Assembly: GCA_036517335.1 (NCBI GenBank)
Contig: DATDWX010000033.1
Coordinates: 9-64,008, forward strand
From: Minisyncoccota bacterium
GTDB taxonomy: Bacteria > Patescibacteriota > Minisyncoccia > Phycocordibacterales > UBA2100
DNA: 64,000 nt
Reading direction: 5' to 3'
The notes under the pieces were generated by a model. The model did no database searches and was not told the DNA's origin. It worked only from the letters and a program-made list of their open reading frames with translations. The position numbers and the translations under genes were made by a program. This document shows, piece after piece, positions 5,486-58,385 of the stretch. Positions within the stretch are counted from its first letter, which is position 1, and the number at the start of each line of letters is the position of its first letter.

Positions 5486-7525
5486 ATGGCAGACAAAAAA
5501 AAGAAGAAGGCGGGTTCATACAACGCCGCGGACATCACCGTCCTCGAGGGATTGGAGGCGGTACGGAGGAGGCCGGGGATGTACATCGGCACGACCGACA
5601 CGTCGGGCTTGCATCATCTTGTCTGGGAAGTATTCGACAATTCGCGCGACGAGGCGATGGGTGGTTTTGCAAACGACATCGAAGTGGCGCTCCTTCCCGA
5701 CGGCTCGGTGCGCGTCGCCGACAATGGTCGCGGCATTCCAGTAGACGTCCATTCGAAAACAAAAGTCTCCGCGCTCGAAACGGTAATGACAAAATTGCAC
5801 GCCGGTGGCAAATTCGGTGGTGAAGGCTACAAGGTATCCGGCGGCTTGCACGGCGTGGGTGTCTCGGTCGTCAATGCGCTTTCGGATGCGGTGCGTGCGG
5901 AAGTGCATCGTGATGGCGGCGCATACGTGCAGGAATATAAAAATGGTGGCACGCCCGTGAGTAAGATCAAAAGAATGGGCTCGTCGGATCTGCACGGCAC
6001 CATCATCCGCTTTCGCCCCGATTCTTCGGTCTTTCCGGAACGCACATTCAATTGGGAGACGATCGTGGCACATATGCGCCAGCAAGCGTACCTCGTGCGC
6101 GGTTTGAGGATCTCTATCCTCGATCTGCGGCAGGTGCCCAAAGTCGACGTAGAGGACGCGTTCTATGTTCGTGAGCTGGGCATCGAAGCTCCCTCGGTGA
6201 GCTTTTATTTCGAGGGTGGTCTCCGCAGTCTCGTGGCGTTCCAGAATCGTCATCAGGAGCCCATCCACAAAACTATTTTTTACGTGGAGAAGGAAGAAGA
6301 CAACGTGCAGGTGGAGATAGCACTGCAGTATGTAGACGACATCAACGCGCGTCTTTCCGCTTTTGCAAATAATATCTACACTGCCGAAGGCGGTATGCAT
6401 GTGACCGGTTTCAAGGGCGCTCTCACCCGTTCGCTGAACGCACAAATAAAGAACGGTGGTGGCAAGGAGAGCGAGAGTTTTACCGGCGACGACTGCCTGG
6501 AGGGGATGACGGCGGTCATTTCGGTAAAGCTGCGTGAGATCCAATTTGAGGGACAAACGAAAGCCAAGCTCGGCTCGGTAGAGGCGCGCGCCGCGACGGA
6601 GGCGGTGTTTGGGGAAGCATTCAGCGCTTTTCTCGAAGAGCATCCTGACGAAGCCCGGGCAATCATCGCGAAAGTAAGCTTGGCCATGAAGGCGCGCAAG
6701 GCAGCCAAGGCCGCTAAGGATTCGATCCTGCGCAAAGGCGCCCTAGACGGCATGACACTGCCGGGCAAACTTGCCGACTGCCAAACGAAATCAGCAGAGG
6801 AATCCGAGCTGTTTATCGTCGAGGGGGATTCCGCCGGTGGCACTGCCAAAGCAGGTCGCGATCGCCGTACACAGGCGATATTGCCGCTGCGCGGAAAGAT
6901 CCTCAACATCGAGCGGGCGCGACTCGACAAAATGCTCGCCTCCGAGCAGATACGAAATCTTGTGGTCGCTCTCGGGACAGCGATAGGGGATATTTTTGAC
7001 ATTTCCAAATTGCGGTATCACAAGATCATTATCGCCACCGATGCCGACGTGGACGGCGCGCACATCCGCACGCTGCTCCTTACGCTTTTATTCCGACACT
7101 TCCGTCCGGTCATTGACGGCGGCTTTCTCTACATTGCGCAGCCGCCGCTCTACAAGATCAGAAAGGGGAAGGAAGTCGCGTATGCATACAGCGAGGCCGA
7201 AAAGGTTGGCATTGCGGGGAAAGATACCCCGATTGAAGAAGAAACATCGGGGCAAGGGGAGCCAGAGATTCAAGAGGCGACGCCTCTTGAATCTGGGAAA
7301 CGAACTCCAAAAATTTCGGTACAACGCTACAAAGGTCTGGGTGAGATGAATGCCGAGGAATTGTGGGAGACAACGATGGATCCGGCCAAACGCGTGCTTA
7401 TGCAAGTCACCATCCTCGATGCCCAAGAGGCCGACCAGGTCTTCGATATGCTCATGGGCACCGACGTCCCAGCCCGCAAGTCATTCATCCAGTCTCACGC
7501 GCGCGAAGCGACGCTGGATATTTAG
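5486..7525 (+). CDS. gyrB: DNA gyrase subunit B
   Basis: MADKKKK..YNAADITVLEGLEAVRRRPGMYIG, the GHKL ATPase, a TOPRIM (EGDSAGG) and QRYKGLGEM. Confidence 0.95.
   Translation: MADKKKKKAGSYNAADITVLEGLEAVRRRPGMYIGTTDTSGLHHLVWEVFDNSRDEAMGGFANDIEVALLPDGSVRVADNGRGIPVDVHSKTKVSALETVMTKLHAGGKFGGEGYKVSGGLHGVGVSVVNALSDAVRAEVHRDGGAYVQEYKNGGTPVSKIKRMGSSDLHGTIIRFRPDSSVFPERTFNWETIVAHMRQQAYLVRGLRISILDLRQVPKVDVEDAFYVRELGIEAPSVSFYFEGGLRSLVAFQNRHQEPIHKTIFYVEKEEDNVQVEIALQYVDDINARLSAFANNIYTAEGGMHVTGFKGALTRSLNAQIKNGGGKESESFTGDDCLEGMTAVISVKLREIQFEGQTKAKLGSVEARAATEAVFGEAFSAFLEEHPDEARAIIAKVSLAMKARKAAKAAKDSILRKGALDGMTLPGKLADCQTKSAEESELFIVEGDSAGGTAKAGRDRRTQAILPLRGKILNIERARLDKMLASEQIRNLVVALGTAIGDIFDISKLRYHKIIIATDADVDGAHIRTLLLTLLFRHFRPVIDGGFLYIAQPPLYKIRKGKEVAYAYSEAEKVGIAGKDTPIEEETSGQGEPEIQEATPLESGKRTPKISVQRYKGLGEMNAEELWETTMDPAKRVLMQVTILDAQEADQVFDMLMGTDVPARKSFIQSHAREATLDI
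7267..7293. repeat. 27-bp perfect palindrome GATTCAAGAGGCGACGCCTCTTGAATC lying in frame in gyrB (encodes IQEATPLES)
   Basis: Exact palindrome. It sits in the variable loop before QRYKGLGEM, which is about 25 aa longer than in the B. subtilis GyrB. Confidence 0.8.
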
Positions 7526-18453: not shown

Positions 18454-21400
18454 TTACAGTGCTTTCGCTCGCTCTACGACAAAGCTGGGCTCGCCGTTTC
18501 TTTCAGAAATTCTGCCTTTCAGCATGACGCAGGTGCCGGGGGCGAGGAGGGCTTCGTGTTCTTTTAAGATGCGGGGAAACGCGACGGCTTCGATGCCACC
18601 GGAGAGGTCGGCGAGTTTGAGGAAGAGCATACGCTCGCCGTTTTTCGTTAGGATATACTGCACGCTTTCGATGAATCCGGCGATGACCGTCTCGACGCCG
18701 CGCAGATTTTCTTTGGCATGCTGGATGGTTGTTTTCTGATTCGCCAATTTTTCTTTGTGCTTATCGAGCGGGTGACCGGAAATATAGAGGCCGAGCAATT
18801 CCTTTTCCCACACCAACCGTTGATCCATCGTCGCCGGAGGTGCGGGCGGCAACTTCAGCGCCGCAGGCGCTGAAGTTGCCGCTCCGAACAAAGAACCCTG
18901 ATCGGTCGGCGCCTTCATGTGTTCGCGATGATAGGTGAGGAGCAGTTCAACGTTGGCAAAAAGCGCTCCGCGCTCTCCCAGATCATCTAATGCACCACAT
19001 TGGATCAGCGCCTCAAGGGACTTCTTGTTCAAGTTCTTATCGGGGATACGGGAGATAAAGTCGGCAATATCTTTGAACGCGCCGCCCGACTCTCTGGCGG
19101 CAATGATCGAATCCCCCACTCCTGTGCCGAAATTTTTGATGGAGTAAAGACCAAAGCGGATATTCGTCTGATCTACCACAGTAAACACGCCACCACTCTC
19201 ATTGACTGAAGGCGGCCACACGTGGATACCCATTCGTTTGCATTCCGCGACCGCTTCAGCGATTTTTTCCACGTCGCCGGCGTCAGCTGTTAGCACCGCA
19301 GCCATATAGTCCACAGGGAAGTTGGCCTTCATGTACGCCGTTTTGTACGCGAGCGAGCCGTAAGAAGCCGCATGGGCTTTGTTGAATCCGTATGCAGCGA
19401 ATGTCTCTATTTGCTCCCATAATTTTTTTGCTGCATCTGGCTTCATGCCGTTATGTATACAGCCAGTAGTAAAACGCTCTTTCTGTGCCGCCATTTCTTT
19501 CGGCACTTTCTTTCCCATTGCTTTGCGGAATTTGTCGGCCTCGCCCCATGAGTACCCTGCGAGCTGCACAGCTATCATCATCACGTCGTCCTGATAAATG
19601 AGGACGCCATACGTAGGCTTCAAGATTTCCTCCAGACGCGGATCGAGATAGCGCACGCGTGCTGGATTTTTCTTGCGCTCAATGTATTCAGGGATGAAGG
19701 CCATGGGGCCTGGCCGGTAGAGAGCGACCATCGCATTCAAGTCATGGATGACGGTCGGCTTTAGCTCTTTGAGATACGACGTCATACCGCCACCCGCCAT
19801 TTGAAAGACGCCGAGGGTTTCGCCGCGGGTGAGCATCTCGTACACTTTCCCATCGTCGAGCGGAATGCGATCGAGATCCACTTCTTGCCCGAGCCGCGCG
19901 CTCACGCGCGCGACGGAGTCGGCGAGGACCGACAGGTTGGTGAGTCCGAGGAAGTCGAATTTGAGAAGGCCCACGCCGCCATATTCGTCGGCGATAGAGT
20001 ACATGTCGTACTGGGTGATCATTTTGCCACCTTTCGGGTCCATTTGGATCGGCGAGTAGTTGACCACAGGCTCCGGCGCGAGGATCACACCCGCCGCGTG
20101 CACACCGACATGCCGCGCGTTGCCCTCTATCTTTTGCGCAAAGTCAATAATTTCTCGCGCGTCGGGATCATTCTCATACACTTGTTTGAGTTCTGGCACG
20201 CTCTCTAGTGATCCCGCAATAGAGACAGGGAAGCCCTGCTTGCCGAAGGGGATCATTTTGGCCAGAGAATCGCCCTTGCCGTAGGAGTGCCCGAGTGCTC
20301 GCGAGACATCCCGCACTGCAGCGCGCGCCATCATCGTGCCGAACGTGCCGATCTGTACCACTTTGTTCTCGCCGTACTTTTCTCGCGCGTACTCTATTAG
20401 TTCGTCGCGGCGAAAGGCGTCGATATCCATGTCGATATCCGGCGCGCTCGGCCTCTCGGGATTGAGGAAGCGCTCGAAGGGCATGTTGAACTCGAGGGGA
20501 TTGACGCTCGTGATGCCGCAGAGATAGGAGACCAAGGAGCCAGCTGCGGAGCCGCGCGTATTAGTGAAAATGCCTCTCCCCCGTGCCCACGCGAGGAGAT
20601 CAGCGACGATGAGGAAGTACGATGCGTAGCCCTTTTGCCTGATAATGTCGAGTTCATAATTGACCCGCGCCCACATCTCGTGCGATTCCGTGAGTTCGCG
20701 CTCTTTGATGCCGCGCTCAGTGAGCACTCGCAGCTCATGATCGTCCGTGGACCCTGGGGGAATGGGGAAGTTGGGAAAAATGACCTTGCCCAGCGTGAGC
20801 TTGAGGTCGCAGAGATCGGTGATTTTTTGTGCATTTTCGAGCGCCTCGGGCGTGTCGGCGAAAAGTTCAGCAGCGCGTTCGCTTGTAATGAATGAAAAAT
20901 CCGGGCCACTGCCCGCCGATTCACGATCAAGCGTACCCCCCGTGCGTATCTTGATGACGAGCTCGCGCGCGGCCGCGTCCTCTTTCTGCATATAGTAAAC
21001 GTCGTGCGCCGCCACCAATTCGACAAGCTCATGGCGAGCTAGTGTGACAATACGGCGCATCTTTTCCTCGTGTCCTTCGACTTCCGGGTGGTGGGTGATT
21101 TCGATGAAATATTTTTCTCCATACAATTTTTTGTACCACGCCAGGATTTCTTTCGCACGTTCGACATTCCCGTCCGCCAAAGCGCGGGCATGCTCACCCG
21201 AAAAGCTGGGCAGTATCGCAATCAATCCATCGCGGTGTTGCTCCATCAATTCCCTATCAATGCGCGGGCGATAATAAAATCCTTCGAGATACGATTTTGA
21301 TACGAGCTGGAGAAGATTGTGATACCCCGCCTCATTCGCCGCGAGCAACACAAGCCGCGAGTGTCTATCGTCCACCCGGTGCTCTTTATCGCGCCGCGTG

Positions 21401-21722: not shown

Positions 21723-22337
21723 ATGGAACAGATGAAATACCTCATCGGCATCGACGAGGCGGGGCGGGGGCCTTTGGCTGGGCCGGTTGCCGTGGGGGCG
21801 GTTGTTGTTCCTCGGAATTTTGATTGGAAGCTCGTCGCTGGTGCCAAGGATTCCAAGCAGATGACCCCGGCGGGGCGGGAGAGCTTGTACTCCACGATGA
21901 GCGAATTGCGCAAGGAGGGAAAACTCGATTTTGTCGTTGCATTTTCCTACCCAGCCATGATTGATCGGCAGGGCATTGTTCCGGCGATCCAAAGCGCCCT
22001 CAACCGAGCCCTGAGCAAAATTCAAGAGGCGTCGCCTCTTGAATGCGAGGTGCGGCTCGACGGGAATCTCAAGGCTCCCTCCGAGTTCGTTCATCAAACC
22101 ACTATCATCCGCGGCGACGAGTCGGAGTCTGTCATTTCCCTAGCCTCGATCGCTGCCAAGGTGGAGCGTGATCTCCTGATGGCGCGGCTTGCTACGAAGT
22201 ATCCGGCGTACAGATTTGAAAAACACAAGGGGTACGGCACCGCAGAGCACAGGCGGAACATCCGGGAGTTTGGGCTCTGCAAAATTCACCGGGCCACATT
22301 TTGCACACGTTTGCTTCTTGGCTCAAATGCAGTATAA
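21723..22337 (+). CDS. rnhB: Ribonuclease HII
   Basis: IGIDEAGRGPLAGPV, DSKQ, the LDGN..., KGY motifs. Confidence 0.85.
   Translation: MEQMKYLIGIDEAGRGPLAGPVAVGAVVVPRNFDWKLVAGAKDSKQMTPAGRESLYSTMSELRKEGKLDFVVAFSYPAMIDRQGIVPAIQSALNRALSKIQEASPLECEVRLDGNLKAPSEFVHQTTIIRGDESESVISLASIAAKVERDLLMARLATKYPAYRFEKHKGYGTAEHRRNIREFGLCKIHRATFCTRLLLGSNAV
22020..22044. repeat. 25-bp perfect palindrome ATTCAAGAGGCGTCGCCTCTTGAAT in frame in rnhB (encodes KIQEASPLE)
   Basis: Exact palindrome. Same family and same coding phase as the gyrB and tsaD copies. Confidence 0.8.
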
Positions 22338-32506: not shown

Positions 32507-35500
32507 ATGGCTGCTCCAAAAAGAAAAGACATGATCCCGCAAGAATTCGATGCCGTGACGATGAGGCTTGCCTCACCCGAGCGCATGCTCGAGTGGTCGC
32601 ACGGAGAGATCACGAAGCCGGAAACCATCAACTACCGCACCCAGCGGCCCGAGAAAAACGGTCTCTTCGATGAACGTGTCTTCGGTCCCGAAAAAGACTA
32701 CGAATGTTATTGCGGTAAATACCGCGGCATCCGCTTCCGCGGCATCATTTGTGAGAAGTGCGGCGTGGAGATCACGCGTGCCATTGTACGGCGCGAGCGC
32801 ATGGGCCACATTGATCTCGCAACTCCCGTGACCCACATCTGGTTCCTCCGGGGAATCCCTTCGAGGATCGCGCTCATGCTTGGCCTTTCTGCCGCAGAGG
32901 TGGAGAAAGTCGTCTATTTCGCTGGGTACATTGTCACATCGGTGGCAGAAGCAGAGCGGACGCGCCTCTTGAAAGACCTTGAGCAGGAGTTCCAGATGAA
33001 AACGAAGTCAGCTGCGAACGCAGAAGAGAAGACGCGGCTCAAGGATCTTGCGCAAAAAGCAAAGAAGGAAATTGAATCAATCAAGGAAGGTTCTGTTCTC
33101 GATGAGGCATCGTACCACCTTTTTGCCGTCAAGTACGGCGCAATGTTCCGTGCCGCGATCGGTGCCGAGGCCCTGTTCAATATAATGAAACATCTCGATC
33201 TTAAGGCGTTCATCAAGCGGCTGAAAGGAGAGCAGGGGACGGCGGGAGCGGCCGAGCGCGAAAAATTGCGCAAGCGCCTCGCGCTCGCCGAGTCTTTGCA
33301 GCGAGCAGGCGTGCGACCGGAGTGGATGTTTATCACGCGCCTGCCCGTCGTGCCGCCAGCCTTGCGACCCATGGTCGCCCTCGAAGGCGGCCGCCACGCG
33401 TCGTCGGATCTCAACGATCTCTACCGTCGTGTCATCAATCGCAACAACCGCCTCAAGCGACTGCAACAGATCAATGCACCCGAGGTCATTTTGCGCAATG
33501 AAAAGCGTATTTTGCAGGAAGCTGTGGACGCACTTCTCGACAACTCTATGCGCCGCGGAGCGGGCATTTCCGGCATTTTGGGCGGCCGAAGGCGTGCCTT
33601 GAAATCTCTGGCAGATTATTTGAAAGGCAAACACGGCTATCTTCGGCAAAATTTGCTCGGCAAGCGCGTAGATTATTCGGGCCGCTCCGTCATTGTGGTC
33701 GGCCCCGACCTCGCGCTCGACCAGTGCGGATTGCCCAAGCACATGGTCTTGGAGCTCTTCCGCCCCTTCGTTATTCAAGGGCTTCTCGCACGCGAGCTCG
33801 CCTACAACATCCGTGGCGCCGGACGCCTCATCGAAGACGAATCACCGGATGTGTGGCCGATCCTCGAAGAGGCGATCGAAAATAAGTACGTCCTCTTAAA
33901 CCGCGCGCCGACACTCCACCGTCAATCCATTCAGGCGTTCCGGCCCGTATTGATCGAAGGCAACGCGATCCAGGTGCACCCATTGGTGTGCCCCGCATAC
34001 AATGCCGACTTCGACGGGGACGCCATGGCGGTGCACGTGCCACTGACGGAGGCTGCGCAGCTCGAGGCGGCGCAGATCATGTCTGCCAACAAAAACATTT
34101 TGAAGCCGGGAAGCGGCGACGTGGTTGTTGCATCGAAGCTCCTCGACATCGTCCTTGGCTGCTACTGGATGACGAAGTCGGTGGACAAAATGAAAGGCGA
34201 AGGCACTGCCTTCCCTTCCACCAACGCCGCAATAACAGCCTTCGATTTCGGCGCGATCGATCTGCGCGCGAAGATAAAAGTCTTGCCGAGTACCAATAAA
34301 AAATATGCACAATTCAAGGGCGCGATCTTCGAGACCACGGTCGGGCGGCTCCTCTTCAACTCCGTCCTGCCCAATGTTTTCCCGTACCTTAATGAAGAGA
34401 TCACCAACAAGCGTATGCTTGCCCTGGTGCAGAATCTAGTCACCGAATACAAGCTGGACGGCATTCCGGCGATACTCGACAAGATCAAGACCTTCGGTTT
34501 TCGCTACGCGACGCACGCGGGCATTACGTGGTCCATCTCCGACGTTGTTGTTCCCGACATCAAGAAAGAATTGGTCGCAGGAGGTCAGGCGCACGCAGCG
34601 CGCGAACAAGAAAATTACCGGGACGGACTCCTCACGGAAGAGGAGCGTAAGCGAATGACGATCGAGATCTGGGCCAAAGTATCTGCCGACCTGCGCAAGT
34701 ACGTCGTCGAGTCACTCGACCCCAACGGCTCCGTACACGACATGATCCAGTCCGGCGCTCGTGGCTCCGTCGTGCAATTGCACCAGATGGTCGGCATGAA
34801 GGGACTCATCACCAACCCGCGTGGCGAGATCATTGAGTTCCCCGTCCGTTCGTCCCTGAAAGAAGGTCTTACTCCGATCGAATACTTCATCTCGACACAC
34901 GGCGCTAGGAAGGGTCTTGCCGACACGGCTCTTAATACAGCGCGCGCTGGCTACCTCACGCGCCGTCTCTTCGACGTCGCGCATGACGTTGTCATTTTAG
35001 AGCCCGATTGTGGCGTCAAAGACGGTATCGCGATCGCACGGCCGGGCAAGGAAAACATCGGCGAGAGTTTTGCGGACCGCCTTGCGGGGCGGGTGCTTGC
35101 CGAGGACATCGATGGAAGCTTCTCCGCCTCCGGCGGGAAGCGAGGCCGTCTTCTCACGCGGGACGACGCGCAGGCTATAGAAGATAATTCAAAGATCAAG
35201 GAGGCTGTCGTGCGCTCCCCCATGCACTGCAAAGTTGCTCGCGGCGTGTGCCAAAAATGCTATGGCGTGGATCTGGCAAGCGGCGAGCTTGTGGATCTCG
35301 GCGAGGCTGTGGGGGTGATTGCGGCGCAAGCGATCGGGGAGCCGGGTACGCAGCTCACGATGCGTACCTTCCACACAGGAGGCGTGGCACAAAGTGGTGG
35401 CGACATCACGATGGGCTTGCCGCGCGTCGAGGAAATATTCGAATGTCGCATGCCAAAATCGCCTGCCCTTCTCGCGCGCGTATCGGGCGTCGTCTCTGAT

Positions 35501-36202
35501 ATTACTCGCGATGGCGAAGAGCACGTGATCACCATTGTCCCCGAGGTCGCCAGCACCAAAACAGCCAAGGCTGCAAAGAAAGAGACCGAATACAGAGCCA
35601 CCGCTTTCCGCCAAATCGTCGTGAAAGTAGGGCATAGTGTGGTGAAGGGCGACTACCTAACAGACGGCTCGGCAGACCTCGACGAGCTCTACATGCTCGC
35701 GGGCAAAGAGCGCGCGCAAAATTACATCATCAGTGAAGTCACTCGCATCTACGAACTGCAGGGCGTGTCGACCGCGCGCAAACACTTGGAAATTATCGTG
35801 AAGCAAATGTTTAGCCGCGTATCGGTCGTCTCTCCCGGCGATACGGGGGTTTCCGCGGGAGAAATTCTTGCCGACTTCAAATATGAGCAGCTCAATGAGA
35901 GTGCAAAGGAAACGGGCAGCGAGAAAGCGGTGGGTAAGCAGCTGCTTCTCGGCATCACCGAAGTGTCGCTCACCAGGGCGTCGTTCCTCTCCGCGATCTC
36001 ATTCCAAAACACACCGCGCAAGCTCGCAGAAGCCGCCGTCTCGGGTGCCGTGGACCGACTCGTCGGTCTCAAAGAAAACGTGATCATCGGCCGCCTCATC
36101 CCCGCAGGCACGGGCTTCCCGGGCAGCAAGAAGCACAAAATGATCGAAGATATGGAAACAAGCCTCGCGGCGAGTGTTCCAGCGGAAGCGGAAGGGGCGT
36201 AA
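32507..36202 (+). CDS. rpoC: DNA-directed RNA polymerase beta-prime subunit
   Basis: Zn-finger CEKCGVEIT and NADFDGDAMAVHVP. Confidence 0.95.
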   Translation: MAAPKRKDMIPQEFDAVTMRLASPERMLEWSHGEITKPETINYRTQRPEKNGLFDERVFGPEKDYECYCGKYRGIRFRGIICEKCGVEITRAIVRRERMGHIDLATPVTHIWFLRGIPSRIALMLGLSAAEVEKVVYFAGYIVTSVAEAERTRLLKDLEQEFQMKTKSAANAEEKTRLKDLAQKAKKEIESIKEGSVLDEASYHLFAVKYGAMFRAAIGAEALFNIMKHLDLKAFIKRLKGEQGTAGAAEREKLRKRLALAESLQRAGVRPEWMFITRLPVVPPALRPMVALEGGRHASSDLNDLYRRVINRNNRLKRLQQINAPEVILRNEKRILQEAVDALLDNSMRRGAGISGILGGRRRALKSLADYLKGKHGYLRQNLLGKRVDYSGRSVIVVGPDLALDQCGLPKHMVLELFRPFVIQGLLARELAYNIRGAGRLIEDESPDVWPILEEAIENKYVLLNRAPTLHRQSIQAFRPVLIEGNAIQVHPLVCPAYNADFDGDAMAVHVPLTEAAQLEAAQIMSANKNILKPGSGDVVVASKLLDIVLGCYWMTKSVDKMKGEGTAFPSTNAAITAFDFGAIDLRAKIKVLPSTNKKYAQFKGAIFETTVGRLLFNSVLPNVFPYLNEEITNKRMLALVQNLVTEYKLDGIPAILDKIKTFGFRYATHAGITWSISDVVVPDIKKELVAGGQAHAAREQENYRDGLLTEEERKRMTIEIWAKVSADLRKYVVESLDPNGSVHDMIQSGARGSVVQLHQMVGMKGLITNPRGEIIEFPVRSSLKEGLTPIEYFISTHGARKGLADTALNTARAGYLTRRLFDVAHDVVILEPDCGVKDGIAIARPGKENIGESFADRLAGRVLAEDIDGSFSASGGKRGRLLTRDDAQAIEDNSKIKEAVVRSPMHCKVARGVCQKCYGVDLASGELVDLGEAVGVIAAQAIGEPGTQLTMRTFHTGGVAQSGGDITMGLPRVEEIFECRMPKSPALLARVSGVVSDITRDGEEHVITIVPEVASTKTAKAAKKETEYRATAFRQIVVKVGHSVVKGDYLTDGSADLDELYMLAGKERAQNYIISEVTRIYELQGVSTARKHLEIIVKQMFSRVSVVSPGDTGVSAGEILADFKYEQLNESAKETGSEKAVGKQLLLGITEVSLTRASFLSAISFQNTPRKLAEAAVSGAVDRLVGLKENVIIGRLIPAGTGFPGSKKHKMIEDMETSLAASVPAEAEGA

Positions 36203-36276
36203 GGTTGATTCAGTTCACATTGTCTTGTATTGTTGATTTGGACTGCGGGCAACAACGCCTGCAGAAAGGAGGCGTA

Positions 36277-36534
36277 ATGCCGTCGCAAGATACCGACAGT
36301 TTGCACGTTTGGGCGTCGCGCCAGCGTGCCGAGACTGAGATCGAAGGCGCCGAGCTGACAGAAAAATTCAAAGGCTACCCGCACATTCTGCGGTGGATCA
36401 AGCTCTGGATCTTGGTCAGACCATCGGGTATCGAATTTTTGGAAAAGATGGATTTCGACAATCCGCCGTTCGATTTGCGCCATCTTGATAATATCTTGAA
36501 GGTTTTCGTCTTCGATGTCTTGCCACCGCTTTAG
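36277..36534 (+). CDS. Hypothetical small protein
   Basis: Strong RBS AAAGGAGG 7 nt upstream of the ATG. Confidence 0.4.
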   Translation: MPSQDTDSLHVWASRQRAETEIEGAELTEKFKGYPHILRWIKLWILVRPSGIEFLEKMDFDNPPFDLRHLDNILKVFVFDVLPPL

Positions 36535-36581
36535 GATGCGGCCAACCTCGGAAGGGCCTACTCGTGCGGCTAAGGAAGAAA

Positions 36582-36623
36582 CCCCGGTCGGCGAATTAAT
36601 CTGCCGACCGGGGTTCGCTTTCC
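36582..36623 (+). terminator. Rho-independent terminator (ccccggtcggc gaattaatct gccgaccgggg ttcgctttcc)
   Basis: 11-bp perfect stem and a T-rich tail, ending the rpoBC transcription unit. Confidence 0.75.
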
Positions 36624-36642
36624 GGTCTTATGGCCTGACGTA

Positions 36643-36673
36643 AATATTAGTGGTTTACGAAACCACTAATATT
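36643..36673. repeat. REP-like 31-bp palindrome AATATTAGTGGTTTACGAAACCACTAATATT overlapping the RAYT1 stop codon
   Basis: 14-bp perfect arms. Copy 1 of 3 of this family. Confidence 0.75.
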
Positions 36674-37328
36674 CCAGGCGGTACTCCTTGAGAGAGCTTG
36701 CTTGGTTGGATCGCAAGAATGACGAGATTTCTTTTTTGTAGTCCTTAAAGACGTCGGAGAAGAGTTCGGTTGTCAGAATTGATGGAAAATTGTGTGTCCC
36801 CGTGTAGTCGAGGTAGCTGCTCCACTTATATTTTTCAAGAGTTTGCAATGCAGCTGTAGCACTCTGCAAACCATGTTGCCGCCATTCCTTGCCGCCGCGA
36901 GAAAAGTCGAGTGGATTACTATGAATGTAATTGAGAATGTGCAAAAAATGTGCGTCGGTATGGATGTGAACCTTCTTGCTGCGTCCCTGAAAAAGCGTGC
37001 CTTGCCGTTTATATCGCTCGTTAAAGTAATTGGCATATCCCACGTTCAGGCGACGAATAAACTTTGTAAGGCCGCCGTCTATCCGTTCAGATATGAGAAG
37101 GTGATAGTGATTTCCCATAAGACACCATGCATGCAGATCAACGATCCGCTCCTTTGCCATATAGTGGTTTCGTAAACCACTAATATCAGACGCGCGATGC
37201 CAAACATTTTTTGCGTCTTCAACGTCATTGAATTCCCACATGTCGTGTACGAACCGGGCCCTGTCCTTGTCATCAAGGAATAATGATCGCTTATCAACGC
37301 CGCGATTCAAAACGTGGTACAGCTCCAT
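36666..37328 (-). CDS. REP-associated tyrosine transposase (RAYT) / IS200-like HUH-Y1 transposase, copy 1
   Basis: HUH motif (AWCLMGNHYHLLI) and a Y1 motif (LNYIHSNPL; compare YIYINPV in E. coli RayT). 220 aa, flanked by REP-like palindromes. Confidence 0.8.
   Translation of the reverse strand: MELYHVLNRGVDKRSLFLDDKDRARFVHDMWEFNDVEDAKNVWHRASDISGLRNHYMAKERIVDLHAWCLMGNHYHLLISERIDGGLTKFIRRLNVGYANYFNERYKRQGTLFQGRSKKVHIHTDAHFLHILNYIHSNPLDFSRGGKEWRQHGLQSATAALQTLEKYKWSSYLDYTGTHNFPSILTTELFSDVFKDYKKEISSFLRSNQASSLKEYRLEY
37159..37186. repeat. REP-like palindrome (ATATAGTGGTTTCGTAAACCACTAATAT) inside the RAYT1 coding sequence (encodes DISGLRNHY)
   Basis: Same arms as the flanking copies with a complementary centre. 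Confidence 0.7.
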
Positions 37329-37337
37329 ACCATCATT

Positions 37338-37369
37338 ATATATTAGTGGTTTACGAAACCCCTAATATT
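37338..37369. repeat. REP-like palindrome ATATATTAGTGGTTTACGAAACCCCTAATATT immediately upstream of the RAYT1 start
   Basis: One mismatch relative to copy 1. Confidence 0.7.
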
Positions 37370-37518
37370 CGGGCGGGGTTGATTGTCGAACGCTGATCAT
37401 GCCCAAAGGGGCGACCCGTTCGCCCTTTTTGTTTTCCGGATGAGAGGAGCCCCACAGGGGAACTGCTGTTTGTATTCAATCGCTTCGCGCTCGGACAAAG
37501 AGGGAGCATAATGGGCGC

Positions 37519-39300
37519 ATGTCAGATACTGTGCAGCAAATTAAGGATAGGTTGTCTATTACGGATGTGGTCAGCCAGTACGTGAAATTGGAACGAGCGG
37601 GCTCGACACTCCGCGCCCGTTGCCCTTTCCACGCCGAGAAAACACCCTCCTTTTTCGTCTCGCCCGAACGCGGCACCTACCACTGCTTCGGTTGCAATGT
37701 GGGCGGCGACATATTCTCGTTCGTCGAGCAGATCGAGGGACTGGATTTTAAAGGGGCGCTGAAGATTCTTGCAGAAAAAGCCGGCGTGGAGATCGTGTAC
37801 CGGGGCAAGGGTGAGTCTCGGGAGGGCAGGGATGAACGCGACCGATTATTTGCGCTTATGGAAACGGCCGCGATCTTTTATGCGTCGCGCTTGAGCGACG
37901 GGGCGCGGAGTTATTTACAGGGACGCGGCGTCGAAGACGCCACCGTACACGCTTTTCGTATTGGCTGGGCAGGCAATGAGTGGAGCGAGGCGTCGGATTA
38001 TCTGAAAGGCAAAAGGTTTACCGACAAAGAAATGATTGACGCCGGTATTGCAAAGAAAAACGAACGTGGCAACCTGACCGACAAATTCCGCAACCGCATC
38101 ATGTTTCCTATTGCGGATTCAGCCGGGCGCGTGGTGGCTTTTTCTGGTAGAATTTTTGGTGAGCACGCCTCTCCCGAGGCACCCAAATATTTGAATAGCC
38201 CCGAGACGCAGCTGTATCACAAATCCCGGATACTCTACGCATTCGACCGCGCCAAAATGGCTATCCGCAAGGCTGCTTGCGCGGTCTTGGTGGAAGGACA
38301 GATGGATCTCATTATGAGTCACCAAGCAGGATGGACCAACACCGTTGCCGTTTCGGGTACCGCCTTCACGCAGGAGCACGCAGCGCTTATTCGGCGGATG
38401 ACGGATAATCTCGTGCTTGCCCTCGACGCTGATCAGGCGGGTATAAAAGCAGCGGGTCGCGCTGCCCGGGTGGCCCTGCAGGGCGGACTCAATGTGAAAG
38501 TAGCCCAGTTGCCCGAGAATATGGACCCCGCCGACCTCATCGCGAAGCGCGGCATTGATGCGTGGAAAACAGCAATTCGTGAGGCTAAAGACATCATCAC
38601 CTTTTTGCTTGATGTGCTCGAGAAGCACCTGCCTGCGCAGGCAGGTGCCCAGCACAGCGACCGATTTCGCCGTGCGGTGGAGACGGTCGTACTGCCGTTT
38701 GTGGTGGATGTGGGAAGCCCGATTGCGCGTGAGCAGTATATGCGGCAAATCGCAGGGCGCCTCGGCGTCTCGGAGAGCGCAGTCGCAGAGGCGCTGAAGC
38801 GCGTGCCGACCGAGTCTCTCACGACAGGCACCAAGGGAATGGTGGCACCGCCTGAAAGTGGGACAACCACACTGAAGGGTCTCGATAGGGTACAGCCCTC
38901 CTTCGCCAAAGGTTTCGAGAGGACGCGGCATGGATATGCCTTGCTCCTTCTGCAAACTTCGATGCCAAAACCGGACATTGATATTGTGCAATACGCGCGA
39001 GAGCTTGAGGTCGCAATAGGCAAAGAGGCATTCAAAGCTCTCGAAGCCTTGAGCGAATCCGAAAAGGAAGTCCTTCGTTTTTCTGCCGAACGCTTGTACA
39101 GTGCGAGCAAGAATGTAGTGCGTGACGCCCATGAGCTCGTGAAGATCCTCCACGAGGAACGATTGCGGCGCGAACTTGCCGAAGTGGTCAAACTGCAGCA
39201 AAAGGCCGAACGCGCAGGTGGCAAGGCCGAACTGGCCACGCTGGAGAAGCGATCGAAGGTGTTGATAGCCAAGATTGCACAATTGCACGGAAAGGGATAG
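37519..39300 (+). CDS. dnaG: DNA primase
   Basis: Zn-ribbon CPFHAEKTPSF...CFGC and a TOPRIM (VEGQMD, DADQAG). Confidence 0.9.
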   Translation: MSDTVQQIKDRLSITDVVSQYVKLERAGSTLRARCPFHAEKTPSFFVSPERGTYHCFGCNVGGDIFSFVEQIEGLDFKGALKILAEKAGVEIVYRGKGESREGRDERDRLFALMETAAIFYASRLSDGARSYLQGRGVEDATVHAFRIGWAGNEWSEASDYLKGKRFTDKEMIDAGIAKKNERGNLTDKFRNRIMFPIADSAGRVVAFSGRIFGEHASPEAPKYLNSPETQLYHKSRILYAFDRAKMAIRKAACAVLVEGQMDLIMSHQAGWTNTVAVSGTAFTQEHAALIRRMTDNLVLALDADQAGIKAAGRAARVALQGGLNVKVAQLPENMDPADLIAKRGIDAWKTAIREAKDIITFLLDVLEKHLPAQAGAQHSDRFRRAVETVVLPFVVDVGSPIAREQYMRQIAGRLGVSESAVAEALKRVPTESLTTGTKGMVAPPESGTTTLKGLDRVQPSFAKGFERTRHGYALLLLQTSMPKPDIDIVQYARELEVAIGKEAFKALEALSESEKEVLRFSAERLYSASKNVVRDAHELVKILHEERLRRELAEVVKLQQKAERAGGKAELATLEKRSKVLIAKIAQLHGKG

Positions 39301-46183: not shown

Positions 46184-47038
46184 ATGGCGAGGAAAAAAAC
46201 GGCATTGCCCATAACCCACTGGAGCTACTCCTCGTTAATGTCTTATTTGCGCAATCCTTTGGCTTGGTACAAGCGCTACGTAGAGCACGTGTACGACACG
46301 CCTTCGTCGCCCGCGGGTATCATTGGCCGGGCGGGGCATGTGGCCTTGCAACATTTCTACAGCGGGATAGCGAAGGAGGGCGCGATTGATCTAGGATTGG
46401 AATATTTGCGCAGCGTGCCGGACTTTGAGATCAATTTTGGCAAGCTAAAGTCCCTGCCTGCCGGCAGGCAGGGTGCCGCGCAAAGGAGAAAGCGCCAGCT
46501 GATGGGACGCGAATACCTGCAGGCGGTCGCTTTCTACTTGGAGAAGCCGCCACGCTACGATGTCTTGGGCGTGGAGGTCAGGGCCGACGCACTAGTACAA
46601 GGATTGCCCCTGCCGATACGTGCGGTATCCGATCTCGTCGTGCGGTCAAAGGGGGAGCGGGATGCGCTTGATGTCGTAGATCACAAATTTGTGGATTCTT
46701 TCAGCGCGCTCGGCGCTGGCAAGACGCTCTTCGTCATCCAAGCCATCTTCAACTACTACACCGTCTCACAGATGTACGATAGACCTGTACGCCGCTTCAT
46801 TCTGCAGGAGTGCAAAAAAAGAAAAAACGCCGACGGCTCACCCCAAATGCGCAAATATGTAATCAACTTCGACGAACGAGCCGAAGATTTCGCCCTCTTC
46901 CACCGTTTAATCAAGGAAACAACGGCCGATCTCGCAAAGCGACAACACTTCCTCCCCAATCCATCTGATATGTTCGAAGGCGAGAATTCCTTTGATATTT
47001 ATCGGCTTGGATTGACTGGTAAAAATCACACGTTATAA
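46184..47038 (+). CDS. PD-(D/E)XK nuclease superfamily protein (RecB/Cas4-like N-terminus, no Cys cluster)
   Basis: N-terminal HWSYSSLMSYLRNPLAWYKRYV and a D...D-x-K-like motif (ALDVVDHKF). Confidence 0.5.
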   Translation: MARKKTALPITHWSYSSLMSYLRNPLAWYKRYVEHVYDTPSSPAGIIGRAGHVALQHFYSGIAKEGAIDLGLEYLRSVPDFEINFGKLKSLPAGRQGAAQRRKRQLMGREYLQAVAFYLEKPPRYDVLGVEVRADALVQGLPLPIRAVSDLVVRSKGERDALDVVDHKFVDSFSALGAGKTLFVIQAIFNYYTVSQMYDRPVRRFILQECKKRKNADGSPQMRKYVINFDERAEDFALFHRLIKETTADLAKRQHFLPNPSDMFEGENSFDIYRLGLTGKNHTL

Positions 47039-51673: not shown

Positions 51674-51707
51674 CGACATTTAACGTCTTGGGTTATTGGA
51701 AAAATAA

Positions 51708-51744
51708 TGAAAGACATCGGATGTTGGACATCCGATGTCTTTCA
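51708..51744. repeat. REP-like palindrome TGAAAGACATCGGATG-ttgga-CATCCGATGTCTTTCA upstream of RAYT2
   Basis: 16-bp perfect arms. Shares the GACATCCGATGTC core with 52426-52452. Confidence 0.7.
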
Positions 51745-51759
51745 TGGTATCATTGGGGT

Positions 51760-52422
51760 ATGGATCTGTACCACATTTGCAATCGGGGTGTCGATAAGCG
51801 AGAGGTGTTTCTTGATGATGGCGATCGCACACGATTCGTTCATGACCTGTATGTAATGAACGATGTGCATTCGGTGCCGAATCACGGCCGTCATGAGCTA
51901 GGCAACATATCAGATGCAGGACACGAACGAGAGCCACTTGTTCATTTGTACGCATGGTGTCTCATGCCCAACCATTACCACCTACTCCTGTCCCCGGTCG
52001 ACGATGAGCCCGCGAATCTGTCTTTGTTTGCGCAGAAAGTGGGCATGGGCTACTCGAAGTTTTTCAATAAAAAATACAAACGATCCGGTGCCCTTTGGCA
52101 GGGGAAACATAAAAAGGTGCATATACAACGAGACGCTCATTTCCTCTATATTCCGTTCTATATCCATCTTAATCCTCTCGACCTATCGATTCCGGAATGG
52201 CGTCACGGGCGGGTGAAGGATGTGGACAAGGCCTTGGAACAACTAAGCGGCTATCGCTGGAGCAGTTTTCTCGACTATACTGGAGTAAAAAATTTCCCGT
52301 CCCTTATCGACAAACCTCTGCTTACAGATATGCTCGGTTCGCGCAAGAAACAAAGCAAGATAATAGCGGATATCATCGGCGACGGAATATTGGCAAATTC
52401 CAGCTGGGCATTAGAGATGTAG
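51760..52422 (+). CDS. REP-associated tyrosine transposase (RAYT) / IS200-like HUH-Y1 transposase, copy 2
   Basis: AWCLMPNHYHLLL (HUH) and FYIHLNPLD (Y1). 220 aa, a paralogue of 36666-37328. Confidence 0.8.
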   Translation: MDLYHICNRGVDKREVFLDDGDRTRFVHDLYVMNDVHSVPNHGRHELGNISDAGHEREPLVHLYAWCLMPNHYHLLLSPVDDEPANLSLFAQKVGMGYSKFFNKKYKRSGALWQGKHKKVHIQRDAHFLYIPFYIHLNPLDLSIPEWRHGRVKDVDKALEQLSGYRWSSFLDYTGVKNFPSLIDKPLLTDMLGSRKKQSKIIADIIGDGILANSSWALEM

Positions 52423-52425
52423 AAC

Positions 52426-52452
52426 AATGAGGGACATCCGATGTCCTTCATT
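52426..52452. repeat. REP-like palindrome AATGAGGGACATCCGATGTCCTTCATT immediately downstream of RAYT2
   Basis: 13-bp arms with one mismatch. Confidence 0.65.
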
Positions 52453-52464
52453 GGTAAAGGATTG

Positions 52465-57182: not shown

Positions 57183-58385
57183 TTACACGTTTGCCAGCCT
57201 TAAATTCCCACTGGCGCGAAGAGATGCCGGATCGGCGAATTCTTTTTTGAGAGCGTGGAAATAGCCGGCTAGCGCGATCATGAGGGCGTTGTCGGTGGCC
57301 CATTCGGGTGCGGGGATGAGGAGTTGGACATCCTGTTCATCGAGTGCTTCTTTGAGCCGTTGTTTGATATGCGTGTTGGCCGAGACGCCGCCGCCAACTA
57401 AGACCGTTTGTGCGCCATGTTCCTCCACGGCTCGCAGGGTTTTCGCGACGAGCACGTCGGCGGCGGCGTCTTCAAATTCGCGCGCGATTTCTATTTTCTT
57501 TGCATACGTGAGCGTTCGACCGCCGATCACATTGCGCACTGCTGTTTTCAATCCCGAGAATGAAAAGTCGTAAGATTCATCCTTCATCATCGGCCGCGGC
57601 AATTCAAGAGGCGACACCTCTTGAATCTGACGCGAGCGAGAGGCAAGCCGTGCGATCTCCGGCCCGCCAGGATAGGGAAGTCCCATCATCCGCGCAATTT
57701 TATCAAACGCTTCGCCCACCGCATCGTCGCGCGTCTCACCAATCGTTTTAAACTTTGGCCATTCAGTAATCAAATCCAATTCCGTGTGCCCACCCGAGAT
57801 GAGTAGCGCAATGGCGGGGAATCCGGACTCGTCGATTCTTAATCCCGATACTTCGTTATATAACGAAGTATCGGGATTTGAGACTATCGCCATGGCAATA
57901 TGACCCTCCAGGTGGTTCACAGGTACGATCGGAATATTCCATACTGCGCTCAGCGCTTTTGCAAAATTTACCCCGACCCACAGCGCGGGCTCAAGGCCGG
58001 GGCCGTGCGTCACCGCGATCGCATCAATATCAGGCCTCCCATGTGTTTTTAAAAATTCTTCGAGCGCCTGAAAAAGTTCCGGTTCTCGCACCAGCAATTC
58101 CCGGATGTTCAAGGACCGTCCTTGAACCAATTGGATCAAGGACGGTCCTTGAACAGCTTGAGCGGACTGTGCGAGTACTTCACTTAGAAGCGGGACGAGA
58201 TTTTTTGCATGCTCGCGCTTGGCGAGATTGGGAAAGATGCCGCCGTAGGGGGCATGAGTCGCGATTTGTGAGTGGAGTGCGTTGCCCAGCACTTGAAATT
58301 TGAACGATGCGCCAAATGATCCTTCGGCCTCGATCAAACAAACAGCGGTTTCATCGCACGAGGTCTCTATCCCTAAAATCTTCAT
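57183..58385 (-). CDS. tsaD: tRNA N6-adenosine threonylcarbamoyltransferase TsaD (400 aa, about 55 aa longer than typical)
   Basis: MKILGIETSCDETAV, HLEGHI, GGVSAN. Carries two in-frame palindromic insertions. Confidence 0.85.
   Translation of the reverse strand: MKILGIETSCDETAVCLIEAEGSFGASFKFQVLGNALHSQIATHAPYGGIFPNLAKREHAKNLVPLLSEVLAQSAQAVQGPSLIQLVQGRSLNIRELLVREPELFQALEEFLKTHGRPDIDAIAVTHGPGLEPALWVGVNFAKALSAVWNIPIVPVNHLEGHIAMAIVSNPDTSLYNEVSGLRIDESGFPAIALLISGGHTELDLITEWPKFKTIGETRDDAVGEAFDKIARMMGLPYPGGPEIARLASRSRQIQEVSPLELPRPMMKDESYDFSFSGLKTAVRNVIGGRTLTYAKKIEIAREFEDAAADVLVAKTLRAVEEHGAQTVLVGGGVSANTHIKQRLKEALDEQDVQLLIPAPEWATDNALMIALAGYFHALKKEFADPASLRASGNLRLANV
57602..57626. repeat. Palindrome ATTCAAGAGGCGACACCTCTTGAAT in frame in tsaD (encodes QIQEVSPLE on the minus strand)
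   Basis: 10-bp arms. Same family and phase as the gyrB and rnhB copies. Confidence 0.75.
58107..58154. repeat. 48-bp compound palindrome GTTCAAGGACCGTCCTTGAAC-CAATTG-GATCAAGGACGGTCCTTGAAC in frame in tsaD
   Basis: Two 21-bp palindromes in inverted orientation around CAATTG. Encodes VQGPSLIQLVQGRSLNI. Confidence 0.75.

Follow-up and report, generated by a model that had tools for sequence, protein, structure and literature searches.

It is established that repetitive extragenic palindromes (REPs) flank the genes of REP-associated tyrosine transposases (RAYTs), that one genome may hold several RAYTs, each with a REP of its own, and that these genes are vertically inherited (PMC2817692, PMC5581495, PMC6006769). 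REPs within genes, many of them in replication and repair genes, and Rickettsia palindromic elements (RPEs) are likewise known (PMC3733652), and in-frame REPs inside the tnpAREP gene itself have been described as peculiar to subclass 2.4, where they lie between HUH and Y in Cyanobacteria and Bacteroidetes (PMC6006769). In the literature searched, no paper describes REP/RAYT-type systems in Patescibacteria. Here we analyze the gene of a RAYT-like HUH-Y1 protein (RAYT1) and its palindrome in a stretch of 64,000 nucleotides, hereafter called the window, from contig DATDWX010000033.1 of a Minisyncoccota bacterium (Patescibacteriota; assembly GCA_036517335.1; G+C content of the window 54%). Our reading, to which we assign a probability of about 0.68, is that RAYT1, from a Kaiserbacteria/Paceibacterota lineage of the Patescibacteria, has been domesticated and passed on vertically as a class-2 HUH-Y1 nuclease/ligase of single-stranded DNA (ssDNA) of the RAYT/TnpAREP kind, whose cognate palindrome occupies three fixed places and is kept alike by copying.

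RAYT1 and the three copies of its palindrome

The features of the locus on which the analysis is based are the following, with positions given in window coordinates.

36666-37328, minus strand: RAYT1 coding sequence, a class-2 HUH-Y1 (RAYT-like) protein of 220 amino acids (aa), with its TAG stop at 36666-36668
37101-37109, minus strand: RAYT1 HUH motif, NHYHLL, with H74 and H76
36927-36929, minus strand: RAYT1 catalytic Tyr134, in NYIHSNPL
36643-36673: D, the downstream copy of the palindrome, an exact 31-mer with a 14-bp stem and a 3-nt loop, overlapping the TAG stop
37159-37186: I, the internal copy, in codons 47-55, encoding DISGLRNHY
37339-37369: U, the upstream copy, with two mismatches to D, ending 11 nt before the ATG
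37335-37340, minus strand: -10-like hexamer TATAAT, 6 nt from the RAYT1 ATG, the putative promoter of a leaderless mRNA

The 31-nt palindrome AATATTAGTGGTTTACGAAACCACTAATATT is exact in D, where it reads AATATTAGTGGTTT-ACG-AAACCACTAATATT and where its left arm forms the last two RAYT1 codons plus the stop (...E-Y-TAG). Its 21-nt core, TAGTGGTTTNNNAAACCACTA, occurs three times, once within the RAYT1 open reading frame (ORF) at 37162-37182, as compared to an expectation of 0 in 100 dinucleotide shuffles. The internal copy is present in the reverse-complement form, with the loop CGT instead of the ACG found on the plus strand in U and D, and its positions 37162-37186 are 100% complementary to 36644-36668 in D. 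It is one outer-arm base short, by which an in-frame TAA is gone. Folded as ssDNA, D, I and U reached -11.6 kcal/mol (z = -8.4), -7.0 kcal/mol (z = -5.8) and -8.2 kcal/mol (z = -4.3), respectively. A search of positions 36000-38000 against Rfam in E-value mode returned no match.

Assignment of the protein to the HUH-Y1 family relies on profile, motif and fold comparisons. The Pfam family Y1_Tnp (PF01797) matched RAYT1 with 33.5 bits at a cutoff of 23 (residues 57-137, corresponding to profile positions 35-120 of 121), and the NCBIfam equivalog NF047646 (REP_Tyr_transpos) scored 40 bits, which is under its cutoff of 80. An AlphaFold2 (AF2) model built with 21 family members as input reached a predicted local distance difference test score (pLDDT) of 79.7 and a predicted template modelling score (pTM) of 0.81, and its best fold match in the PDB was the REP-bound E. 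coli RayT (4er8_A; E = 1.2e-5, target-normalised template modelling score 0.67), followed by ISDra2 and then IS608 TnpA. A sequence profile search of the PDB with RAYT1 gave no RayT or TnpA match, so that the fold search alone connects these proteins. The residues N73-H74-Y75-H76 as well as Y134, H136, N138 and P139 are invariant in an alignment of 21 sequences, in which LFQG, YIH[LSC]NP and WSSY are further family motifs. The tyrosine motif is YIHSNP in RAYT1 and YIHLNP in the family consensus, and because this is Y-x3-NP and not Y-x3-Q, RAYT1 falls into class 2 (RAYT-like) of Quentin 2018 rather than into the IS200 class; the motif set NHYH / FQ / YIHLNP / SS agrees with the signature of subclass 2.1 in that classification. 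When 1.84 billion cluster representatives were searched with RAYT1, 162 clusters were found at E ≤ 1e-30 versus 17,137 at E ≤ 1e-3, which places RAYT1 in a modest clade within a very large superfamily. The defence models of PADLOC matched neither RAYT1 nor its paralogue RAYT2. The C-terminus of the family is an almost invariant Leu-Glu followed by the stop (LEY and stop in the RAYT1 group; window 36669-36674), independently of whether the downstream hairpin overlaps the stop codon. By analogy, this ending may be a counterpart of the autoinhibitory Glu161 of E. coli TnpAREP, a lead that concerns the poorly modelled residues 214-220.

A protein identical to RAYT1, recorded under the name 'MAG TPA: transposase [Candidatus Paceibacterota bacterium]' (MAG, metagenome-assembled genome), is encoded on nine contigs, and all of its listed places (ENA, JGI and Logan assemblies) are between rpoC and dnaG, which in the window occupy 32507-36202 and 37519-39300, respectively. 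Orthologues with protein identities of 85%, 84%, 77% and 76% were detected in other Kaiserbacteria-like genomes. Called rpoC and dnaG genes are present on either side in three of the five lineages (the window, L007 and L110), and for the other two (L022 and L025) adjacency to dnaG only was deduced from reading frames. Synonymous sites are saturated between the orthologues (synonymous divergence dS 1.4 or not computable; nonsynonymous divergence dN 0.05-0.18), with a dN/dS of about 0.04 for the one computable pair. Synteny and saturated dS together show that RAYT1 is vertically inherited.

Despite this divergence, U, I and D are retained in the orthologues although the surrounding intergenic DNA is unalignable. 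Invariance of third codon positions among four orthologues was 6/9 in codons 49-57 versus 17% gene-wide, and this maximum of the gene falls exactly on I. The same segment is the one of lowest confidence in the AF2 model (residues 43-52, with pLDDT <50, in the stretch that joins helix 20-32 to strand 63-70), and because the synonymous peak coincides with it, the constraint at I is on the nucleotides and not on the peptide. Changes of the arms are shared between copies of the same locus: the derived arm AAACCAATA is common to all three copies in L110, where other orthologues have AAACCACTA or AAACCATTA, and AAACCATTA is common to the internal and downstream copies in L007. U of both the window and L110 also repeats the GAA that in D is the last Glu codon.

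The window encodes a second enzyme of this type with a palindrome of its own.

51760-52422, plus strand: RAYT2, a 220-aa HUH-Y1 paralogue, 49% identical to RAYT1
51707-51745: RAYT2 upstream palindrome, 18-bp stem, core GACATC-N-GATGTC, ssDNA fold -19.7 kcal/mol
52425-52453: RAYT2 downstream palindrome, same core, beginning 2 nt past the stop, ssDNA fold -10.3 kcal/mol

The sequence of this palindrome is unrelated to that of RAYT1. No internal palindrome is recognisable in RAYT2, in which the corresponding segment differs from RAYT1, and the internal copy is absent in all four sampled members of the RAYT2 subclade. An earlier note on this DNA, made from the sequence alone, had described a 220-aa protein with HUH and Y1 signatures between rpoC and dnaG, a palindrome over its stop codon with further copies inside and upstream of the gene, and a different internal segment in RAYT2. 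These claims are borne out, with the additions that the loop of the internal copy is inverted and that RAYT2 is flanked by a distinct palindrome; the upstream copy had to be moved from a start at 37338 to 37339 and carries its two mismatches, and of the profiles for the family Y1_Tnp recognizes the protein, while the RayT equivalog does not.

The upstream copy abuts or overlaps the TATAAT box of RAYT1, and no Shine-Dalgarno (SD) sequence is present at the start of the gene. This arrangement recurs among the relatives described below: TAnnnT ending 4-10 nt before the start codon was found in 32/63 family loci versus 12% at random positions, its strict form TA[TC]A[AC]T at the same distance in 14/63 versus 0.8%, and an SD-like motif in 1/63. 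Because the -10-like box is enriched and SD-like motifs are nearly absent, the family genes look leaderless, and the box enrichment points to a promoter with U in its upstream half. Relative to the stop, the start of the downstream copies varies from -8 to about +30 nt, and no T-tract follows them.

Two side observations concern the surroundings of the gene. Between rpoC and RAYT1 there is a 109-aa ORF (36205-36534, plus strand) with no Pfam match; in the source records it is instead called as an 85-aa gene on the opposite strand, and it is missing from the orthologous locus of CG10. Terminator-like G+C-rich hairpins are found on both sides of the RAYT1 unit (36580-36615 and 37405-37429).

Palindromes across the family and in host genes

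A scan of metagenomes yielded 80 loci with relatives that are 29-60% identical, 63 of which provided complete genes with flanks and were analyzed by listing the best hairpins upstream of the gene, in its nucleotides 90-240 and near its stop codon. Nearly every one of the 63 genes has its own palindrome, examples of which, each present three times at its locus, are given below.

L027: ATGATGGACTT-acg-AAGTCCATCAT
L031: ACTTTTGGACTT-cgt-...
L051: ACTATTGAAGTC-g-GACTTCAATAGT
L071: ATGTTGAGAGTT-c-...
L075: CGGGGTC-a-GACCCCG

With 12 nt or more of identical contiguous sequence as the criterion for sharing, U and D shared sequence in 53/63 cases at the same locus versus 1.6% across loci, U and I in 31/63 versus 1.3%, and I and D in 31/63 versus 1.5%, while in the control comparison of U with the rest of the gene sharing was observed in 4/63. 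The apex of the hairpin is conserved within subclades and nearly always has a central CG, and the distal stems are variable. Since the stems differ wholly between loci, with six arms at each locus, templated copying between U, I and D, which we infer from the coordinated arm changes, would be the economical explanation for their likeness.

The internal copy resides at a fixed site in about 33/63 loci, in which its centre falls within RAYT1 residues 45-56; in 22 loci the centre is at residue 53. The peptide encoded there follows the DNA, as GLRN (GGTTTACGAAAC) and GFVN (GGTTTCGTAAAC) come from one hairpin with opposite directions of the loop. A neighbour-joining tree shows the internal copy across one large clade, with none in the deep outgroups and with losses in sublineages that include the RAYT2 clade; within the deep clade it was found in 33/48 members, down to about 35-40% protein identity. 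The loop of the protein has a median length of 29 residues with and 25 residues without the internal palindrome, which fits an old acquisition of the internal copy followed by decay in place.

Copies outside the enzyme loci are few. Among 185,579 GTDB species genomes, the representatives of which do not include the source genome, TAGTGGTTTNNNAAACCACTA was found at 15 loci, a number near the chance expectation for 18 specified bases. Ten of these have the loop CGT/ACG, which the query left unspecified, and all ten are in MAGs of the candidate phyla radiation (CPR) or of unclassified bacteria. Three of the ten are flanks of RAYT1 orthologues and seven are solitary, at 1-2 per genome, two of the genomes with solitary copies also having the enzyme gene (JACPLD01 and CAYVHJ01). 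With roughly 3 exact copies as the maximum in any GTDB species genome, the palindromes are dispersed, very low-copy elements, unlike classical REPs. The sole REPIN-like doublet (REPIN, REP doublet forming a hairpin) was seen in L029, where two further copies of that locus's palindrome, at 3586-3606 and 3674-3694, have inverted loops and are 88 nt apart, the enzyme gene being some 1.1 kb upstream of them. One solitary copy is in frame in a mutY-like glycosylase gene, where it encodes the same ISGLRNHY, and one is in frame in a beta-lactamase-fold gene; another of the RAYT1 type, next to gyrA in L018 (2596-2616), is the ...S-Q-Y-TAG end of a 105-aa ORF. Neither target-site duplications nor a common target motif were seen around the solitary and internal copies. 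As an aside, the L018 copy supplies the stop of a small ORF, as D does for RAYT1.

Palindromes in frame in host genes were observed both in the window and at the loci of relatives, as listed here.

7268-7292, 22020-22044 and 57602-57626: third palindrome family, ATTCAAGAGGCG-N-CGCCTCTTGAAT, in gyrB, rnhB (RNase HII) and tsaD
57841-57878: tsaD insert with a 19-bp stem, encoding NPDTSLYNEVSGL
58106-58155: tsaD insert, a 50-nt double palindrome, encoding AVQGPSLIQLVQGRSLNI
18844-18884: dnaE, a perfect in-frame palindrome with a 19-bp stem, between the HHH and OB domains
38625-38648 (dnaG) and 46452-46473 (PD-(D/E)XK nuclease gene): perfect in-frame palindromes with the common word CCTGCCTGC
L014 5009-5029, L106 10001-10816 and L108 5536-6522: mutY-like gene with palindromes of the W1, L034 and L032 types, respectively, in the same linker

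Fifteen mutY-like orthologues differ at one linker, which either lacks the segment or has peptides typical of other palindromes (NDLRSRY, NDLRGRY and NDLRCRY). Two of these linker palindromes, CATAACGAC-ttacgat-GTCGTTATG and GAATAACGACCT-acg-AGGTCGTTATTC, were compared at the DNA level with the cognate palindromes of the L034 and L032 enzyme genes, with which they have 15-18 overlapping 10-mers in common. Similarly, the tsaD gene of the window (57183-58385, minus strand) has three in-frame palindromic inserts, and in 31 tsaD orthologues these three sites are occupied by hypervariable inserts, one of which is GFTKPLS, encoded by GGGGTTT-acg-AAACCCC. The tsaD of L109 contains GAAATTGGACGTC-c-GACGTCCAATTTC, which matches the palindrome of the L045 enzyme, as well as two copies of GGGGTTT-acg-AAACCCC, which at the DNA level are of the L028/W1 type. 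The third palindrome family is represented by three copies versus 0 by chance, all in one reading frame (IQEA[T/S]PLE or IQEVSPLE), the gyrB copy being located where a linker joins the Toprim domain to the GyrB_C domain. Its centre has 10-mers in common with the flanking palindromes of a distant enzyme gene (L085), a weak link, and a cognate enzyme gene was found neither in the window nor among the first 120 homologues. Judged from their sequences, these are hairpin modules in frame in tolerant loops whose sites persist and whose content changes, and the persistence of host-gene hairpin sites with changing content makes the internal copy of RAYT1 one instance of a wider habit. A side observation was made at site 3 of the tsaD orthologue P0251, where the peptide GFTRPNDRSHSVGRAKPLS, seen in the protein sequence only, resembles GFTKP...KPLS interrupted by an additional insert; this would be a nested insertion.

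A more distant 283-aa Y1 protein, which behaves differently, is encoded by tandem genes in L089 (2317-3168 and 3925-4776) and L091 (184-1035, 2965-3816 and 4573-5424). These two or three near-identical copies are about 1.6 kb apart and look IS-like (IS, insertion sequence) or array-like, and no common flanking palindromes were detected at them.

Proposed mechanism and alternative explanations

By analogy with E. coli TnpAREP and IS608, the enzyme would bind the hairpin that the palindrome forms in single-stranded DNA, cut beside it by means of the HUH-bound metal and Tyr134 with formation of a 5'-phosphotyrosine, and then rejoin the strands. Copying would seed new palindromes and overwrite old ones, such that U, I, D and the dispersed copies stay alike, a concerted evolution that the covariation suggests. 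The internal copy would be an ancient in-frame member of the hairpin population that lodged early in the clade in a tolerant loop, was held in register by copying and decayed in some lineages including that of RAYT2. As U lies against the -10 box of a leaderless gene, the protein probably also represses its own transcription.

Several observations weigh against this reading. Binding, cleavage and copying are extrapolated to the RAYT1 clade from E. coli TnpAREP and IS608. No copy of the RAYT1 palindrome beyond U, I and D and no further copy of the RAYT2 palindrome were found within the 64 kb of the window, and the flanks of the 63 relatives, 201 kb in all, contain only 6 further copies of locus-specific palindromes, a population so small that copying must be a rare event. 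In the orthologue L025 the internal copy is degenerate, which fits a passenger and weakens strict homogenisation. Loop orientation of U, I and D followed no consistent pattern across loci (for U versus I, about 11 opposite and 8 the same), and stem mismatches on the sense strand were without bias (32 G.T versus 26 A.C). Given these two results, either strand could be the active one and the substrate could be single- or double-stranded, and the mismatch test gave no evidence for an RNA-level or single-strand-specific role. A scan with the sigma-70 consensus detected no full -35/-10 promoter and no -35 element at RAYT1. A simple insertion event was looked for at the internal copy and not seen: there is no clean presence/absence indel, and the loops are only about 4 residues longer; this too counts against the reading.

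Explanations diverge on how the internal copy is maintained. That it is a passenger kept by the copying process is the reading we prefer, at roughly even odds. Alternatively, it could be a selected cis-regulatory site: the protein would bind U, I (150 nt from the start of the gene) and possibly D, and repress itself by looping or as a roadblock, for which the auxiliary operators inside lacZ provide a model, or, once abundant, it would nick the gene that encodes it and so limit itself, the match of I to U and D being kept by selection for one protein. We regard this as rather unlikely, even though retention of I at one site in 33/48 deep-clade members, the peak of synonymous-site conservation at I, the position of U against the -10 box of an apparently leaderless gene and the heavy down-regulation of E. 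coli TnpAREP (PMC3479197) would all be expected from it. Loss or decay of I in about 15/48 clade members that retain the gene (among them RAYT2 and, partly, L025) is at odds with a required operator, and the HUH-Y1 enzymes known so far recognize hairpins in single-stranded DNA rather than operators in duplex DNA. Moreover, palindromes also stay at the same places in the mutY-like gene and in tsaD of different species, and because host genes retain them in this way, persistence of the site needs no regulatory role. In gene-dense Patescibacteria, the hairpin populations of RAYT-like enzymes may reside mainly inside proteins, as in-frame modules 7-18 codons long that occupy fixed and tolerant positions both in the gene of the enzyme and in genes for replication and repair. 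These positions would persist from species to species, while the hairpins they hold would be overwritten until they match whichever enzyme is resident. We offer this proposal tentatively and with more doubt than confidence; if true, it would imply enzyme-mediated replacement of hairpins in situ (conversion) and the existence of dozens of natural orthogonal enzyme-hairpin pairs.

The remaining alternatives concern the nature of the system as a whole. The earlier note had regarded the locus as a canonical RAYT plus REP doublet, in which case a single-copy RayT would spread extragenic palindromes to high copy number and the internal copy would be accidental. The HUH-Y1 protein with its RayT-nearest fold, the Y-x3-NP motif, the bracketing by cognate palindromes and the vertical inheritance are indeed those of a RAYT, but the explanation as such is improbable: the equivalog score stays under its cutoff, a common GT[AG]G foot is missing among the listed hairpins of the 63 loci (GTGG occurs in the RAYT1 palindrome only within the paired stem), and the flanks are single palindromes rather than inverted REPIN doublets. 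Neither the 64-kb window nor the GTDB genomes showed the abundance of a high-copy palindrome family. The view of the note that an intragenic copy is unusual does not hold either, since the copy is conserved in position, changes together with the flanking copies in about half of the relatives sampled and is thus family-wide rather than accidental, and in-frame REPs are known in another subclass (PMC6006769). That the unit is an active insertion sequence of the IS200/IS605 type, about 730 bp long and with U and D as subterminal hairpins, seems very improbable to us. Its compactness, with hairpins 0-50 nt from the gene ends and with equal loop orientation of U and D in the window, would suit such an element, as would the location of many relatives on contigs of about 1 kb, though short contigs are the norm in that collection. 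Set against this are rpoC and dnaG on either side in three lineages and dnaG adjacency in two, the saturated synonymous sites, the 49% identity and different hairpins of the two copies in the window, the motif Y-x3-NP in place of the Y-x3-Q of IS200 transposases (PMC6006769), the lack of tnpB, and the result that none of the 93 pattern matches (candidate stretches) on viral contigs encodes a relative. Hardly any credence is given to the explanation that the palindromes are host signals, such as terminators or operators of another factor, with an incidental position beside an HUH gene. Palindromes are common as regulatory sites, and D at the 3' end and U in the promoter region are placed as such signals would be, but the stems track the protein lineage and match within a locus, copies are found inside coding sequences, and the palindromes have neither a following T-tract nor an Rfam match.

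Comparison with known systems

Among described systems, E. coli TnpAREP/RayT with its REPs and bacterial interspersed mosaic elements (BIMEs), the 'REPtron' (4ER8; PMC2817692, PMC3479197), shares with RAYT1 the HUH-Y1 fold, Y-x3-NP, cognate flanking palindromes, low copy of the enzyme gene, vertical inheritance and a C-terminal extension (with the autoinhibitory Glu161 in E. coli and Leu-Glu in the RAYT1 family), at about 12% sequence identity. The RAYT1 family differs from it in lacking a GTAG foot, a bulged stem and REPIN/BIME doublets at the gene, in a handful of palindromes versus hundreds in E. coli, and in the position-fixed in-frame copy, which of the two only the RAYT1 family has. Subclass 2.4 (Bertels Group 4) resembles RAYT1 in combining an in-frame cognate REP in a peripheral loop of its own gene with flanking copies, and is characterized by the motifs NH[IFV]H / WQ / YIxNNP and GTAG-footed REPs in Cyanobacteria and Bacteroidetes (PMC6006769). 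In the RAYT1 family, by contrast, the site is located before HUH, in the alphaA-beta2 loop (residues about 47-56), the motifs are NHYH / FQ(WQ) / YIH[LSC]NP, GTAG is absent and the hosts are Patescibacteria. There is also agreement in motifs with subclass 2.1 (Bertels Group 1, TIRYT; PMC3733652, PMC6006769), with which the RAYT1 family has in common NH[YF]H, FQ, Y[IV]HLNP, the SS tail (WSSY), a length of about 220-240 aa and low-copy flanking repeats, the two being compared by motifs. According to published descriptions, subclass 2.1 lacks REP-like hairpins or has terminal inverted repeats, and its C-terminal domain is helix-turn-helix (HTH)/DnaA_C-like, whereas RAYT1 has clear hairpins and Pfam finds no such domain in it. 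With the TnpA of IS200/IS605 elements (IS608, ISDra2), RAYT1 shares the catalytic fold, hairpins near the gene ends and a presumed single-strand cut-and-rejoin reaction; those elements have Y-x3-Q, obligate dimers and many near-identical mobile copies, often with tnpB, in contrast to the divergent paralogues RAYT1 and RAYT2, the fixed synteny of RAYT1 and the absence of tnpB.

In-frame palindromic repeats in functional genes were reportedly described as Rickettsia palindromic elements by Ogata in 2000. RPE-1 elements are about 100-150 bp long and are not known to have an associated enzyme. The palindromes in frame in functional genes observed here (gyrB, rnhB, dnaE, dnaG, the mutY-like gene and tsaD) are similar to RPEs and intragenic REPs in this placement, yet the units are shorter than RPE-1, with 21-50 nt (7-18 codons), and those in mutY and tsaD match the cognate palindromes of specific HUH-Y1 genes. 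Such in-frame palindromes affect genome annotation and protein alignment in the CPR.

Compared to these systems, what appears to be new is the occurrence in a clade of Patescibacteria, the fixed site before HUH, the three-way covariation over dozens of lineages, the placement in the promoter, the very low copy number and the link of in-frame palindromes in host genes to specific enzyme genes. Systems of the REP/RAYT type would thereby be extended to the ultra-small Patescibacteria (CPR). Hairpins in promoter, coding sequence and stop that have a different stem in each of some 30-50 lineages constitute a covariation set for the reading of hairpins by HUH-Y1 enzymes, and the family could supply orthogonal HUH-hairpin pairs for protein-DNA tagging. 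The changes shared among copies and the reuse of sites in host genes bear on how REPs, in this family as in the systems described before, are copied and kept uniform.

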